Origin: a candidate division WOR-3 bacterium
Lineage (GTDB): Bacteria > Hydrothermota > Tepidihabitantia > Tepidihabitantales > Tepidihabitantaceae
Direction: 5' to 3'
DNA: 64,000 nucleotides
Assembly (NCBI GenBank): GCA_965648905.1
Contig: CBFGIT010000006.1
Coordinates: 63,598-127,597 of the forward strand
The position numbers and the translations under genes are program-made. How positions within the stretch are numbered: position 1 is the stretch's first letter; each line of letters opens with the position of its first letter. Of the stretch, positions 12,178 to 19,557 are shown piece after piece. The notes under the pieces are model-generated. The model was given only the letters and a program-made list of their open reading frames with translations, ran no database searches and was not told the origin of the DNA.

Positions 12178-12768
12178 ATGTCCTATGTCCAGGGCATGCA
12201 CATTGCCGACCTTGACCTTGATGGTTTGGCTCTGCTTGTTCTTGAGAACAGGTTGTGTTTTGTCTGTTCGTTGCTTGAGGACGAGCGCCGGTCTGATTTC
12301 GCCGGGGTCGAGTGTCAGGTGCGGCCTGAGGCCCTGAGACGGCTGGTGGCCGATGAGCGGTCCGGCGTGAAGGTGGCGGTGCAGGATGGCAGGGTTGTCG
12401 GCTATGCCGTGTTCGGCCGGCCCGAGTTGTTCCCGAGCCGGACGCGCCTGGGGTTTGAGTTCGACGACACCGGGCTGCTCATCGCCGCGCTCTACGTGAC
12501 CGAGCCGGCAAGGCAAGCCGGTGTTGACGTCATGTTGTTGTTGGAGATAATGGACTTTGCCATTGAGGCAGGGTACGAGATTGTCCAGGCGGTCTGTCGG
12601 ACTGATGACCGGTCAGGCCCGGAAGGTCCGATACGCCTGTTTGAGGCCGCTGGGTTCAGATTGACCGAGCCGGCTAACGGCTTGGCAAAGGCTGAGATTA
12701 GTCTGGAGGAATGGGCCGAGCGGCAGGAGACCGACGACGAGGAAAGCGGCCCGAATTCGGACATATGA
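12178..12768 (+). CDS. GNAT-fold N-acetyltransferase-like protein
   Basis: VAVQDGRVVGYAVFG, IAALYVTEPARQAGV (motif A-like), LFEAAGF. Confidence 0.7.
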   Translation: MSYVQGMHIADLDLDGLALLVLENRLCFVCSLLEDERRSDFAGVECQVRPEALRRLVADERSGVKVAVQDGRVVGYAVFGRPELFPSRTRLGFEFDDTGLLIAALYVTEPARQAGVDVMLLLEIMDFAIEAGYEIVQAVCRTDDRSGPEGPIRLFEAAGFRLTEPANGLAKAEISLEEWAERQETDDEESGPNSDI

Positions 12769-12772
12769 TATT

Positions 12773-12860
12773 GAGGGGCACGGAGTCAGCGAAGTTACCA
12801 AGGCTCGGTCACCTTATTCGACCTCGGATTCGCGAGCTCTCGTGACCCCTCTTTCCTTTT
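12773..12860 (+). ncRNA. Candidate structured small RNA, copy 1 (homolog of 13442-13531)
   Basis: gagggg-cacg ... cgtg-a-cccctc closing stem; apical AAGG-CUCGGUCA-CCUU; pyrimidine/U tail tttcctttt. Confidence 0.5.
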
Positions 12861-12876
12861 GCTGGTGAGCCGGGGC

Positions 12877-13326
12877 ATGTCTTCTCAATCCGAGACCCGC
12901 CACCAGTTTCGCGTTCGCACTGCAACAGTCGAAGTCAACACCCGGGGATTCTGTGACGTCATCGACATCACTGCCGAAGTGCGACGCGCTGTCGCTGGTT
13001 CCGGCATCCGCGATGGCATAGTATGCGTAGCCAACCCCGGCTCAACCGCGGGCATCACGACCATTGAGTTCGAGGCGGGTGCGGTCGAGGACTTGAAGGA
13101 GGCGCTCGAGAGGATTGTGCCGCAGAACCGACGTTACCGTCACGACGATGCGTGGCAGGACGGCAACGGCTTCGCCCATCTGCGCAGCGCACTGGTTGGA
13201 GCGTCGAGGTCGCTCCCGGTGAAGGATGGCATGCCGGTTCTTGGCACCTGGCAGCAGGTGATATTGGTGGACTTCGATAATCGGGACCGGCGTCGGCAGT
13301 TGGTCGTCACAGTGGTCGGAACATGA
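12877..13326 (+). CDS. yjbQ: YjbQ/UPF0047 family protein (secondary thiamine-phosphate synthase-like)
   Basis: VIDITAEV, GSTAGITTIE, YRHDDAWQDGNGFAHLRSALVG, LGTWQQVILVDFD. Confidence 0.9.
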   Translation: MSSQSETRHQFRVRTATVEVNTRGFCDVIDITAEVRRAVAGSGIRDGIVCVANPGSTAGITTIEFEAGAVEDLKEALERIVPQNRRYRHDDAWQDGNGFAHLRSALVGASRSLPVKDGMPVLGTWQQVILVDFDNRDRRRQLVVTVVGT

Positions 13327-13441
13327 AAAGAACCAAGACCGGCGCATGATGATTTCGCCGTGAGGCTGTACCAAGTTGTGAGCAGGGGTCTTGGCGCGCT
13401 TGGCCCAGAAGTCCGAAGCCGGGCTGCATCAGACTCGCACG

Positions 13442-13531
13442 AAAAAAGTGAGAGTCACGAGCAGTCCAGTGTCACGGCAATCTTGGTGACCGAGCCGATT
13501 CTTGATACCGAACTGTCGTGCTCTCACTAAT
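13442..13531 (-). ncRNA. Candidate structured small RNA, copy 2, with intrinsic-terminator U tract
   Basis: Minus strand AGUGAGAG-CACGA-CAGUUCGGU ... ACUGGACUG-C-UCGUG-A-CUCUCACU-UUUUU; apical GG-CUCGGUCA-CC. Confidence 0.55.
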
Positions 13532-13532
13532 C

Positions 13533-13560
13533 TTAGACGGCCCGGGCGGCAGAAAGGTTC
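13533..13560 (-). promoter_or_regulatory. ECF (sigmaE-type) promoter driving the candidate sRNA
   Basis: GAACCT (13560-13555), 16-bp spacer, GTCTAA (13538-13533), immediately upstream of the hairpin. Confidence 0.55.
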
Positions 13561-13614
13561 GCCGGCTTTCCCGGCCGTTTGGTCACCAAGAGTATTCTAG
13601 CCCCATTTACTGAG

Positions 13615-14880
13615 ATGTCAAGATTTCACGACCTCGCAATAGTGGGCGGAGGAGCGGCCGGACTGGCTTGCGGCGTGGCCGCGGTACGTCTTGGGCTGAA
13701 CGTGGTAATCATCGAGCGCAACTCAACTTGCGGCCGTAAGCTCGCCCTGACCGGTGGCCGCAAGTGCAATTTCACCCATGCTGAGACGCCTCATGCCATG
13801 GTGGCCCGGTTCGATTGCGCTCCTGAGCGGATTATGCCTTTGCTACGCCGATTCCCGTATCAACGGATAGTTAAGTTCTTCGAATCGCTGGGGATAGCTG
13901 CCCGCATTGACGATGAGGGCTGCGTCTGGCCCTCGCGGGCCGATGCTTCCGGAATCGTTGATTCCCTGGTCGGTGAGCTTGTCCGCGCTCGAACAACCGT
14001 GATTGTCGCAGCACGGGTGGTCGGGCTTGATGAAGGTTGGTCGGTGAGGCTTTCTGACGGTCGGCGCATCAATGCCAGAAACGTCTGTCTTGCAACTGGC
14101 GGCGCGAGCTATCCTCATACTGGTTCGACTGGTGACGGGCTGAGCCTGGCAGGTCGACTCGGGCTGGTGACCGTGCCGTGGTTTGCTGCCCTTGCCTCGC
14201 TCAGAACCAGGGAGAACCTGCGCGAGCTTGCCGGCATCTCTCAGCCGCGCGTGGACATGTCGCTTCTGGTCGGACCGAGCCGGGAGTCGCTTCAGGCCGT
14301 GCGTCGTGCTCAGGGCCACTTCATCTTCGCCCACGAGTACATATCCGGCTCCAGCGTTCTGAACCTATGCGGGTTTGCGGCCCGGGCTCTGGCCCAGTGT
14401 CGGCACGTCGTACTGCAAGTTGACTGGGCGCCGGACACGCGCCAGGATGAACTTGCCGCCCAACTTGCAACTGCCCGAGTCAATCGGCCCAGGGCAAAGC
14501 TTGCAACTGTCCTGGCGAGCTTTGTCTCACGGCGACTGGCGACCCGGCTTTGTCAGATGGTTCGGGTTGACCCGGACCGGCTGATGGCCGGATTGACGCG
14601 CCGCGATGCCGAGGCGATTGTGCGTGCGCTCAAGAGCACCGACCTCGAAGTCGTTGGTACTGAGCCGCTCGAGCGCGCCACCGTTGTCGGCGGAGGAGTG
14701 AGCCTTGATGAGGTTAACCTGCTGACCATGGAGGCGAAGCGGCGTCCGGGACTCTATCTTGCCGGCGAGATGCTCGACCTCTGGGCCGAGACCGGGGGGT
14801 ACAACCTGCACTTTGCCTGGGCATCAGGCATCGCTGCGGCTGAGGCAGCAGCGGGTCGGGCGCGGGCGGAGACCGCTTAG
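13615..14880 (+). CDS. HI0933/BaiN-family flavoprotein (NAD(P)/FAD-dependent oxidoreductase)
   Basis: GGGAAGL, GRKLALTGGRKCNFTH, ATGGASYPHTGSTGDG, TVVGGGV, TGGYNLHFAWASG. Confidence 0.92.
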   Translation: MSRFHDLAIVGGGAAGLACGVAAVRLGLNVVIIERNSTCGRKLALTGGRKCNFTHAETPHAMVARFDCAPERIMPLLRRFPYQRIVKFFESLGIAARIDDEGCVWPSRADASGIVDSLVGELVRARTTVIVAARVVGLDEGWSVRLSDGRRINARNVCLATGGASYPHTGSTGDGLSLAGRLGLVTVPWFAALASLRTRENLRELAGISQPRVDMSLLVGPSRESLQAVRRAQGHFIFAHEYISGSSVLNLCGFAARALAQCRHVVLQVDWAPDTRQDELAAQLATARVNRPRAKLATVLASFVSRRLATRLCQMVRVDPDRLMAGLTRRDAEAIVRALKSTDLEVVGTEPLERATVVGGGVSLDEVNLLTMEAKRRPGLYLAGEMLDLWAETGGYNLHFAWASGIAAAEAAAGRARAETA

Positions 14881-16350: not shown

Positions 16351-17727
16351 ATGCTTCCCCCAATCTTCGGGATCTCCGGGCTGCGCGGCGTGGTCGGGCA
16401 GGACCTGTTGCCTGAGACCGTGACCCGGGTCGCGGCCGCGTTCGGTGCCTTTGTCGGGCCGGGCACGGTCGCAATCGGCCGGGACACACGTACCTCGGGC
16501 GAGATGATGCTTGCGGCCGCAACCGCCGGCCTGCTTTCGACCGGCTGCGAGGTCGTGGACCTGGGTATCTGTCCGACTCCGACCGTGCTGCACTATACCC
16601 GGCTTTCGCGGCTGGCCGGGGCGATTGCCCTGACCGCGAGCCACAATCCCGAGCAGTGGAACGGGATGAAGTTCGTCAGCCGGGACGGCGATTTCATCTC
16701 TCCGGAGGAGCTGGCCGCGTTTCGCAAACTGGTCAAAGCCGGACCGCCCCGTTACGCGGGGTGGGACGGAGTGCGGCCGGTCAAGACTAATCCCAACGCA
16801 GTCTATGCCCACGTCAACGCCATCATCGGCAACCGGCTGTTTCGGGACATTCGCACTGCGGTCATCGGCCGCAAGCTCAAGGTGGGCGTGGATGCGGTCA
16901 ACGGCGCAGCCTCGAATGCCGCGCTCCAGCTCGTCGATGCGCTCGGGGCCGAGCCGGTCAAGCTCTACTGCTCGATTGAGCCGCGCAAGCCACTCGGGTT
17001 TCCGCGTCGGCCTGAGCCGACCGCCGAGAATATCACCGACCTCTGCAACTTCGTCAAGGAGCGCAAGCTCGACCTGGGTATCGCCTTTGACCCGGATGGC
17101 GACCGGTTCAGTTGCGTGGACGAGACCGGTACGGCGCTGGGCGAGGAAGCGACCATTTGTCTGGCCTGCAAGTACGTCCTTGCCCGACGCAAAGGGCCGG
17201 TCGTCGTGAACCTCTCGACCTCGCGCGCGGTGGATGAGGTCTGCGCCGGTTTCGGCGTCGCGGTTGAACGGACTCCGGTCGGAGAGGCTTCGGTGGTCGA
17301 GCGGATGAAGGCGGTCAACGCCGTTGTGGGCGGAGAAGGAAATGGCGGCGTGATTTTGCCCGAGCTCAATCTGACCCGGGACGGTCTGGTTGCCGCGGCG
17401 ACGGTTATGGGTCTGCTGAGCGAGAACAGCGGGCCACTTTCCGCCATCCGGCAGGCATTGCCGGCCTTTGTCATGGTTAAGATTACCCTGCCGATGAATC
17501 GGGATGATTTTGCCGCCCGCCTGGACCGGCTCGTTGCCGAGTTCAGCCCGGCTCGGGCCGACCGACACGACGGGCTGAGGCTGGATGGTGATGACTTCTG
17601 GCTGCACTGCCGGGTCTCCAACACCGAGCCGATTGTCCGGATTATCGTTGAGACAAGGGAACAGGCACGGGCCGTGGAGCTGGCCGAGCGGGCGCGGGGC
17701 GTACTCGCGACGCAGGAGAAGGCCTAG
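16351..17727 (+). CDS. glmM: Phosphoglucosamine mutase
   Basis: SGLRG, GRDTR, TASHNP, FDPDGDR, GGEGNG; directly upstream of glmS. Confidence 0.88.
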   Translation: MLPPIFGISGLRGVVGQDLLPETVTRVAAAFGAFVGPGTVAIGRDTRTSGEMMLAAATAGLLSTGCEVVDLGICPTPTVLHYTRLSRLAGAIALTASHNPEQWNGMKFVSRDGDFISPEELAAFRKLVKAGPPRYAGWDGVRPVKTNPNAVYAHVNAIIGNRLFRDIRTAVIGRKLKVGVDAVNGAASNAALQLVDALGAEPVKLYCSIEPRKPLGFPRRPEPTAENITDLCNFVKERKLDLGIAFDPDGDRFSCVDETGTALGEEATICLACKYVLARRKGPVVVNLSTSRAVDEVCAGFGVAVERTPVGEASVVERMKAVNAVVGGEGNGGVILPELNLTRDGLVAAATVMGLLSENSGPLSAIRQALPAFVMVKITLPMNRDDFAARLDRLVAEFSPARADRHDGLRLDGDDFWLHCRVSNTEPIVRIIVETREQARAVELAERARGVLATQEKA

Positions 17728-17730
17728 CCC

Positions 17731-19557
17731 GTGTGCGGCATCGTCGGTTACGTGGGTCCGCGTGACCTGTCGAACGTCATCCTTGTCGGGTTAGAGCGGC
17801 TGGAGTACCGCGGGTACGATTCCTGCGGCATCGCCACGGTCGACTCAGGCAGCATCACAATTCGTAAGACCACGGGCCGGTTGAAGCAACTGAAGGACAT
17901 CCTGGCCCGGCAGCCGGTCAAAGGCAGCGTCGGTATCGGCCATACTCGATGGGCGACCCACGGCCGCGTAACCGATGAGAACGCTCATCCGTTTGCCGAC
18001 TGCACGGGTACCATCGCTCTGGTGCACAATGGCATTGTCGAGAACTACCGGGAGCTGCGCGAGCGACTCATCAAGCAGGGCCACCGGTTCGTGTCCGGGA
18101 CCGACACCGAGGTCGTGGTTCATCTGATTGAGTCGTACTACCGGAACGACCTGGCCGTCGCGATTCGGCGGGCTGCGGCCGAGCTCGCGGGTTCTTTCGC
18201 CCTGGCCGTGATCTCGGTGCGAGAGCCGGACAGGCTCTTTGCTGTGCGGACCGGTTCGCCGCTGGTTATCGGTCGGGGTCGGCGTGAATGCGTGCTGGCG
18301 TCGGATGCGCCGGCGCTGGTGGGAATCGCCCGCAGGATGATGCCGATGCACGACGGCGAAATCGCGGTCGTGTCGCGTGATTCGGTCCAGGTTACTGACC
18401 TTGCCGGTCGGCCGGTCGAGCACGAGTTCACCGCTCTGGAGCTGAAGACCAGAGCGATGTCGAAAGGCAGATACCCGCACTTCATGCGCAAGGAGATATT
18501 CGAGCAGCCCAGGGTCATCAGCGAGAACATCGAACGCCGGTTCCGCGACCGCGCGGTCGTGCTCGACCCGGAGTTTCTCTTTTATCCGGACGAGGTCGAA
18601 AAGGTTGAACGGATTGTCATTCAGGCCTGTGGGACGTCGTACCATGCCGGGCTGGTCGGCCGATACTACTTCGAGAAGTTCTGCCGGATTCCGGTCTCGG
18701 TCGAAATCAGCTCGGAACTGCGAACTTCGGAGTACGTCTACGACGGCCACACCTTGATGGTGCCAATCAGCCAGTCAGGCGAGACTGCGGATACGCTCGC
18801 TGCGCTGCGCGAGGCGAACCGGCGCGAGATTCACTCGCTCGCGGTGCTCAATACCAGACGGTCGTCGATTGACCGCGAGGCCAGTTCCTCGGTTTTCATC
18901 CATGCCGGACCGGAAATCGGGGTTGCCTCGACCAAGGCCTATACGGCGCAGATTTTCACGCTGCTCAGTCTGGCCCTGTACTTCGGCCGGATTCGTAAGT
19001 CGATTTCGGACGAGAAGTTCGACGAGATTGCGGCCCACGTGCGCCGGCTGCCGGAGCAGTTGACCGAGGTGCTCGGTCTGGACAAGCGGATTCGTGACGT
19101 GGCGGGTCGGCTTTCGTTCGCCCACGACTTTCTGTTTCTCGGCCGGGGCATCAACTACCCGTCGGCGCTTGAGGGTGCGCTCAAGCTCAAGGAGATATCC
19201 TACGTGCATGCCACCGGCTACCCGGCCGGCGAAATGAAGCATGGACCGATTTCGCTTGTCACTGAGAATGTGCCGGTGATTGGGATTGCTCCGCGCGACT
19301 CGGTGTATGACAAAATGGTTTCGAACCTGGCCGAGGCGAGGGCGCGCAAGGGCCGGATTATTGCGGTCGGGACCGAGGGCGATACTGCTCTCGCCGAATT
19401 GGCCGAGACCGTGTTTTCGGTTCCGGAGATGCCGGAGTATCTCTCGCCCATCGTTGTTGCCCTGCCCCTGCAATTGCTCGCATATCATGTTGCGGTCCTG
19501 CGTGGCTGCGACGTAGACAAACCCCGTAACCTGGCCAAGTCGGTCACGGTTGAGTGA
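17731..19557 (+). CDS. glmS: Glutamine--fructose-6-phosphate aminotransferase
   Basis: MCGIVG, LEYRGYDS, GHTRWATHG, SQSGETADT, PRNLAKSVTVE. Confidence 0.98.
   Translation: MCGIVGYVGPRDLSNVILVGLERLEYRGYDSCGIATVDSGSITIRKTTGRLKQLKDILARQPVKGSVGIGHTRWATHGRVTDENAHPFADCTGTIALVHNGIVENYRELRERLIKQGHRFVSGTDTEVVVHLIESYYRNDLAVAIRRAAAELAGSFALAVISVREPDRLFAVRTGSPLVIGRGRRECVLASDAPALVGIARRMMPMHDGEIAVVSRDSVQVTDLAGRPVEHEFTALELKTRAMSKGRYPHFMRKEIFEQPRVISENIERRFRDRAVVLDPEFLFYPDEVEKVERIVIQACGTSYHAGLVGRYYFEKFCRIPVSVEISSELRTSEYVYDGHTLMVPISQSGETADTLAALREANRREIHSLAVLNTRRSSIDREASSSVFIHAGPEIGVASTKAYTAQIFTLLSLALYFGRIRKSISDEKFDEIAAHVRRLPEQLTEVLGLDKRIRDVAGRLSFAHDFLFLGRGINYPSALEGALKLKEISYVHATGYPAGEMKHGPISLVTENVPVIGIAPRDSVYDKMVSNLAEARARKGRIIAVGTEGDTALAELAETVFSVPEMPEYLSPIVVALPLQLLAYHVAVLRGCDVDKPRNLAKSVTVE

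Follow-up and report, generated by a model that had tools for sequence, protein, structure and literature searches.

LuxO is a sigma54-dependent regulator. In Vibrio cholerae, this NtrC-type activator is required by one side of a system in which two classes of ncRNA, Qrr1-4 and QrrX, pair through conserved sequences (PMC9732341). The CrfA/SisA-D system of Caulobacter comprises paralogs that have unrelated promoters and contain a motif of ~10 nt complementary to one ncRNA (PMC12559287). The sRNA sponges in the published work considered here were found by Hfq-based ligation methods; QrrX requires Hfq (PMC9732341), and the Caulobacter system is likewise Hfq-dependent, with mRNA targets proven for the siblings (PMC12559287). 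The sigmaE sRNAs MicV and VrrA (PMC6694218) and FoxI and FoxJ of Fusobacterium (PMC9546586, PMC11005410) have promoters of the stress-sigma type (GTCWAA/AAC), comprise several RNAs with one seed and repress envelope mRNAs, and FoxI works without Hfq. CpxQ, which is derived from the cpxP 3' UTR, together with the 3'-derived sponges SroC and PspH, illustrates a further arrangement in which a motif precedes the terminator of a messenger (PMC9438474).

The window analysed here is a stretch of 64,000 nucleotides from a candidate division WOR-3 bacterium, in which two small hairpins face each other across the yjbQ gene. The assignment to WOR-3 agrees with the name of a protein of 94% identity. Together with a second RNA encoded elsewhere in the genome (the sigma54 RNA), they would constitute a system that resembles a known sRNA-sponge pair in working, with both RNAs absent from Rfam and Hfq not found in the genome. 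The likeness to the Vibrio system (PMC9732341) lies in the presence of two ncRNA classes with conserved complementary sequences, one of which is tied to an NtrC-type activator. The WOR-3 pair has no sequence relation to QrrX and Qrr (no Rfam match), and its arrangement is reversed: the RNA linked to the activator mostly has one copy and its complement several, and this complement is under ECF promoters whereas QrrX is under a LysR regulator (PMC9732341). Paralogs with unrelated promoters and a short motif complementary to one ncRNA recall SisA-D (PMC12559287), but the WOR-3 siblings are closed 19-bp hairpins and no mRNA target was found for them. They share with the sigmaE sRNAs the promoter type (the Fusobacterium sigmaE motif resembles the hairpin ECF motif; PMC9546586), the use of one seed by several RNAs and, in the case of FoxI, a setting without Hfq, but their regulon is chaperone-centred and the only conserved complement found lies in another ncRNA.

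A search of the literature outside the supplementary tables of motif surveys found nothing relevant on small or structured RNAs of WOR-3 or on this combination of elements. Genome comparison alone, in a lineage in which no Hfq was found, thus yields a pair of uncatalogued RNA families together with a specific interaction of the two that can be tested. If true, the interaction would provide post-transcriptional cross-talk between heat-shock and envelope ECF regulons and sigma54 signalling, and would point to pairing without a chaperone or to a new RNA chaperone. The length of the two RNAs permits direct in vitro tests.

Two hairpins beside yjbQ and their family

Copy 1, of type A, occupies positions 12773..12860 on the plus strand (65 bits with model R2; U-rich tail), and copy 2, of type B, occupies 13442..13527 on the minus strand (86 bits; U6 tail), with a predicted +1 at 13527, 6 nt past the -10 box. 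An earlier note on this DNA had described two homologous hairpins of like fold at these coordinates, with matching closing stems and bulged A, middle helices, an identical 12-mer and U tails, and all of these elements are present where it placed them. The predicted fold of 12773-12860 (+) has an energy of -38.8 kcal/mol (z -4.2) and that of 13442-13531 (-) an energy of -41.4 kcal/mol (z -6.3); none of 200 shuffles folded equally well in either case, and both strands of the hairpins fold well. The two copies have 39 of 81 columns in common in a structural alignment and are therefore homologous, and a joint covariance model identified exactly two matches in the whole genome, which are copies 1 and 2. 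The identical 12-mer (12802-12813; 13496-13485) occurs four times in the genome. Its reading as an 8-nt loop closed by GG/CC did not hold, as only 19 of 90 copies have the first C of the CC and the closure forms in neither MFE structure; what is conserved is the primary sequence GGCUCGGUC(A), part of which is paired in the predicted folds. The apical motif GGCUCGGUCA, the predicted pairing seed for the sigma54 RNA, lies at 12802..12811 (+) in copy 1 and is conserved at 13487..13496 (-) in copy 2. The failure of the first reading to match the hairpins with a known RNA family was borne out by Rfam 15, for which the gathering matches in the window are two tRNAs only and the best E value at the locus is 0.15; the SRP RNA, 6S RNA and tmRNA of the genome are encoded away from the hairpins.

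The hairpins occupy the gaps between three genes. The GNAT-like gene (12178..12768, +) is a conserved neighbour, found upstream of type A copies in several genera, and copy 1 begins 4 nt past its stop codon. No promoter of its own with correct spacing was seen for copy 1 at the locus, and its RNA may therefore arise by read-through and processing. yjbQ (UPF0047; 12877..13326, +) is a syntenic neighbour that is dispensable for the RNA pair, and the HI0933-like flavoprotein gene (13615..14880, +), divergent from copy 2, is the commonest neighbour of type B copies. This flavoprotein belongs to the family that includes YhiN/RdsA, the 23S D2449 synthase. The glmM and glmS genes lie downstream of it (16351-19557). 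The possibility that the hairpins are the structured ends of a mobile unit carrying yjbQ is contradicted by a genome of the same genus in which both RNAs are kept, facing each other without an intervening yjbQ, and by a BLAST comparison of 24 family relatives, in which a close yjbQ ortholog (E<1e-50) was found in 11 and the RNA in 22.

A family covariance model made from 25 copies describes an RNA of ~82 nt. It matches 40 of the 41 genomes sampled from one WOR-3 family (1-12 hits each), and the hairpin is present in all 29 high-quality genomes, which as related genomes are not independent samples. No significant match was found in 22 genomes from other families of the order (one had an E value of 0.45), and a search of 136 genomes outside the family with a narrower type-B model gave none; because the training copies of both models came from this one WOR-3 family, distant homologs may be missed. 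A GTDB-wide pattern search of 3 of 64 parts returned 118 loci with one strong match among 100 examined, the pattern being too loose, and a single viral candidate copy was rejected for lack of a model match.

Type A accounts for 14 of 90 distinct copies, and types A and B have stems of equal length. The stem comprises 19 bp with two-sided changes at 12 of the 19 pairs; its covariation score was reached by none of 500 shuffles and was much lower in slid controls. The covariation was repeated on 75 distinct metagenome copies (taken from 79 of 123 loci found), whose alignment was fitted to the model. These results, with the presence of the RNA in nearly all sampled family genomes, support the proposal that the hairpins belong to a structured ncRNA family. 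Against this covarying background, the elements GCACG/CGUG-A-C and the apical GGCUCGGUC are nearly without variation: CACG is invariant in 90 of 90 distinct copies, without covariation, the UG-C of the 3' strand is invariant wherever the copy is complete (88 copies), and 76 of 90 carry GGCUCGGUC exactly. Of 88 copies, 73 end in a U-rich tail. Loop pairing does not account for the invariant bulged basal stem GCACG/CGUG-A-C, which may be a protein-binding element.

Promoters and the loop motif outside the hairpin

The ECF (sigmaE-like) promoter motif GAACCT-N16-GTCTAA noticed earlier directly ahead of copy 2 is present at 13533..13560 on the minus strand (read 13560-13533). Across the family, 49 of 90 copies have an ECF-type motif (GAACC-N16/17-GTCTAA) directly ahead of them and 16 of 90 have one of sigma70 type, with few copies carrying both; when the searched interval was shifted by 60-240 nt, ECF matches fell to 0 of 90. 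A matrix built from hairpin promoters gave 30 matches in the genome, the best of which was copy 2, itself a member of the training set. Nine of the 29 other matches lie before genes for ClpB, a ClpC-like ATPase, two Hsp20 proteins, GrpE, GroES, the regulator Rrf2, rubrerythrin and a thioredoxin-like DUF255 protein. The reading of the promoter as a stress promoter is supported, in that it lies at the 5' end of the hairpins and has its motif in common with heat-shock genes. On contig C19, the motif lies upstream of an ECF gene that is followed by a zf-HC2 anti-sigma gene; the product of this ECF gene is probably the cognate sigma factor of the hairpin promoters and seems to serve this lineage as its heat-shock sigma factor. 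Promoter matches lie on contigs C9, C10, C11, C15, C20, C22, C3 and C5 of this genome (G000), and a TetR gene and rpsA likewise bear the ECF motif.

An additional sigma70-type promoter, TTGACA-16-TAGAAT, is found upstream of copy 2 (13594..13621, -) as a consensus match only. A start from this promoter would give a longer copy 2 RNA, the leader of which (13577-13587) contains 11 nt complementary to the 3' part of the copy 2 loop and could mask it. This arrangement was seen in this genome only.

The loop motif also occurs without the hairpin. In a second ECF operon, an ECF gene and an anti-sigma gene are followed by two spy/cpxP-like genes, and GGCUCGGU lies within 60 nt past the last stop codon, ahead of the terminator, at 18 of 30 such loci, with one further locus carrying the motif with one mismatch. 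Among the 11 loci without the 3' motif, in five a full hairpin that lacks a U tail separates the two spy genes and is immediately followed by an RBS, and six have neither motif nor hairpin. Since the motif travels without the hairpin, its primary sequence matters apart from the fold. The motif was present in none of 12 spy 3' regions located among 19 loci fetched from other families. In this genome, the last spy/cpxP-like gene of the operon has the bare motif in its 3' UTR (G000:C33:17688-17697; L283). The motif is located ahead of the terminator as in CpxQ, SroC and PspH (PMC9438474), and marks a candidate CpxQ-like 3'-derived RNA. The likeness concerns this sister element on C33 and not the hairpins, and the full hairpin between the spy genes at five of the 30 loci is unlike CpxQ. 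In genera g3, g7, g9 and g10, the spy 3' UTR adds a second helix to the pairing with the sigma54 RNA described below, which is not the case in this genome; as a general feature this extended pairing was rejected, being lineage-specific (for 8 of 18 UTRs the cognate partner ranks among the best 6 of 30) and poor here.

The sigma54 RNA and its complementarity to the loop

Exact complements of the loop in five small genomes of the family gave 144 sites, of which 91 (including only 7 of the 42 in genome G008) were examined and mapped to this genome. Six anchors were common to at least two genomes, and one, which is non-coding, was common to three. This is the locus of the sigma54 RNA (G000:C4:141090-141281, minus strand; L523, L567), which sits in an ORF-free stretch behind an atypical NtrC-type activator gene and comprises a sigma54 promoter, the site GACCGAGCC, a GCGCUCC motif and a terminator. 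The site itself (C4:141206-141214, -) is the exact complement of the hairpin loop.

Thirty partner loci were then fetched via the activator protein alone. A sigma54-type promoter matching a strict pattern is present at 22 of the 30, with GACCGAGCC after it. The site is exact at 19 of the 30 loci, has one change at nine and has three wobble-compatible changes at one, and the complementarity between the two ncRNAs is thus conserved; the one locus without the site has its counterpart in an RNA with the exact site on another contig. Five further partners from genus g10 have the exact site, and two more did not match the read-out pattern. The partner RNA is ~150-200 nt long, with a second conserved motif, GCGCUC, a covarying terminator and a mean column identity of 52%; Rfam had no match at the partner site in nine loci. 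Its model matches 38 of 41 family genomes and all 29 of high quality, and partner and hairpin occur in the same 15 of 151 genomes of the phylum. Promoter motifs and terminator-like ends are conserved in both RNAs. Second copies of the sigma54 RNA, L576 (G024:C27) and L577 (G017:C145), have lost the site and kept the remainder, including the GCGCUC loop.

Loop and site show matching changes in genome G005 and genus g13. In G005, two of three hairpin copies have the loop GGCUUGGUC opposite the partner site GACCAAGCC, a two-sided change (loop C-to-U opposite partner G-to-A) that was found in this one genome only and with a third copy that keeps the C. The AGCU loop variants of G013 and G021 have AGCU opposite them in the partner; for a third AGCU variant (G014) the partner site is undetermined in the assembly, and its genus mate has U. 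Nine of ten altered partner sites are C to U opposite G, by which a wobble pair is kept. Loop changes that would break the pairing were found in five of 90 copies, three of them in multi-copy g10 genomes and two operon-internal. No partner was found in G008 (88% complete), the loop variant of which predicts a partner site of GACUGAGCC.

With the energy needed to unfold each RNA deducted, 35 of 38 cognate pairs have a net pairing energy below -5 kcal/mol; in this genome it is -10.4 kcal/mol for copy 2 and -7.3 kcal/mol for copy 1. These values are circular as tests because the partner was chosen by complementarity. The MFE dimer predicted for the two RNAs of this genome lacks the seed duplex, and most of the partner site is paired in predictions: of 29 local folds, only two leave 6 or more of its 9 nt free. 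Pairing of the 5' strand of the hairpin with the GCGCUC loop of the partner as a second helix was rejected, as such a helix has no cognate preference across genera (mean rank fraction 0.49), and a loop-loop kissing geometry is unsupported by the local folds. Where the earlier note left it open whether the loop binds a protein or base-pairs with a target, base pairing with a second ncRNA is now favoured over a protein. We consider it probable that the loop functions by base pairing with the sigma54 RNA.

Two other complementary sites deserve mention. Another sigma54-type promoter lies behind an NtrC-type regulator on contig C13 (G000:C13, minus, from 13332), and its leader holds ACCGAGCCG ahead of a gene for a secreted protein as a possible second binding site. 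GACCGAGCC also overlaps, possibly by chance, the stop codons of homologous secreted-protein genes in two genera, ahead of the terminator (L458, G002:C8:1604; L481, G020:C8:230122).

Possible roles of the pairing

The most likely function of this complementarity is that the two RNAs would bind and neutralise each other. Our leading, though tentative, proposal for the direction is that the hairpin serves as a stress-made sponge or antagonist of the sigma54 RNA, in an sRNA-sponge pair that links ECF stress with sigma54. The hairpins would be stand-alone small RNAs made mostly under stress by the ECF sigma factor of the chaperone genes, with some paralogs expressed from sigma70 or other promoters. 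Their stable 19-bp stem would present a single short motif, GGCUCGGUC, for pairing with GACCGAGCC near the 5' end of the ~150-200-nt sigma54 RNA. The likeliest result would be titration or coupled decay, by which the stress RNA would switch the sigma54 RNA off; the GCGCUCC loop of the latter may be its own targeting seed, and the spy/cpxP-like operon of the second ECF, with its bare motif or internal hairpin, may act as a second stress input. The hairpin is favoured as the antagonist because it has a single conserved exposed module, because no mRNA target of its seed was found, and because the second partner copies of G024 and G017 gave up the site for the hairpin and not GCGCUC.

The same pairing could also operate in reverse, with the hairpins and the spy 3' UTR as siblings that repress mRNAs and the single-copy sigma54 RNA as their sponge. 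The known systems argue for this opposite direction, since in SisA-D/CrfA (PMC12559287) and Qrr1-4/QrrX (PMC9732341) the multi-copy RNAs are the regulators and the single-copy RNA the sponge, and it has further precedent in the common seeds of the sigmaE sRNAs MicV and VrrA (PMC6694218), in CpxQ as an sRNA from a cpxP 3' UTR (PMC9438474) and in the motif of the 18 spy 3' UTRs. The search for targets gave it little to act on, and we regard it as unlikely, although a serious contender. Start codons have no excess of seed complements nearby (11 of 363 sites, inside the range of shuffled 8-mers), and the matches found in leaders lie in unrelated genes; these results concern exact 8-9-mers, and wobble targets may exist. 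Two candidate targets failed on conservation. Of the mRNA candidates that were rejected, the adjacent GNAT gene has two complement sites that lack conservation, and the leader of a secreted-protein gene has the site in 1 of 30 orthologs. A seed-plus-RBS pattern gave 107 matches against 71 in the reversed control, in unrelated genes, and the 'TEP' codons of the HI0933 gene reflect ordinary codon use (GAA in 5 of 28). Targeting or mimicry of stable RNAs was likewise rejected, with no exact complement of the 10-mer in the 23S rRNA of the genome, nothing within two mismatches of the 11-mer in 16S rRNA and only two-mismatch matches in tRNAs. Enrichment of the loop across the genome was rejected as well, with 46 occurrences compared with 36-46 expected.

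An improbable extension of the pairing would be a switch operating without Hfq, through which two ECF pathways and sigma70 act on the sigma54 RNA. Three interchangeable carriers of the 9-nt motif (free hairpin, operon-internal hairpin and bare 3' UTR) would converge on one partner, and the invariant bulged stem would recruit an RNA-binding protein or nuclease to the duplex, so that the hairpin would be a guide or tether and not a passive sponge. Hfq (PF17209) was not found in the 99.6% complete genome and neither was CsrA, so that no chaperone is known for the pairing.

Like Y RNAs, which they resemble in size, the hairpins combine a bulged terminal stem with a large apical region and a U tail. 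A protein decoy of the CsrB/RsmZ, GlmY or Y-RNA kind, with a loop that binds protein and a merely incidental site in the sigma54 RNA, would account for RNAs that are multi-copy and highly structured, for the invariant bulged stem and for the same motif in an mRNA 3' UTR. We consider this less probable still: among the proteins that such decoys would engage, CsrA, Ro60/TROVE and Hfq were not found in the 99.6% complete genome, the alignment has no conserved GGA loops, and, in comparison with Y RNAs, the bulge is on the 3' strand and Rfam gives no match. UTRs show no enrichment of the sense motif, and a decoy would leave unexplained the conserved exact complement, with matching changes, in another RNA.

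It is slightly more doubtful again that the pairing acts as a trigger or assembly step, in which the seed displaces the partner's GGUUCUC or builds a two-RNA complex, possibly with a protein-bound stem. Such a role would fit the predictions for many genera in which the partner site pairs with a GGUUC of the same RNA, the CACG that is invariant in every distinct copy without covariation, and the long second helix possible in genus g11 and G002; it is at odds with the lack of cognate preference of that helix across genera and with the absence of the GGUUCUC strand in some lineages, and no candidate protein was identified.

That the hairpins are DNA-level repeats, ends of mobile units (REP/MITE/attC-like) or mere terminators is very improbable, for although one genus has up to 12 model matches per genome, several near toxin-antitoxin or HEPN genes, and both strands fold strongly, there are two copies in this genome, without the many scattered copies or paired ends with cargo of such elements, and usually one or two elsewhere, the distance from promoter to 5' end is fixed, scanning of 164 neighbouring ORFs revealed no integrase and one transposase fragment, G-U covariation and the U tails fit an RNA, and both copies remain where yjbQ is absent. 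In genus g10, units of promoter and RNA are duplicated up to ~11 times per genome (L229, L221, L223, L054, L059, L252). The extra copies lie in variable regions near toxin-antitoxin genes, often beside AbiE, BrnA, HEPN, zeta or DUF4411 genes, and some have other promoter types. Genome G004 carries a tandem array of three copies (L209).
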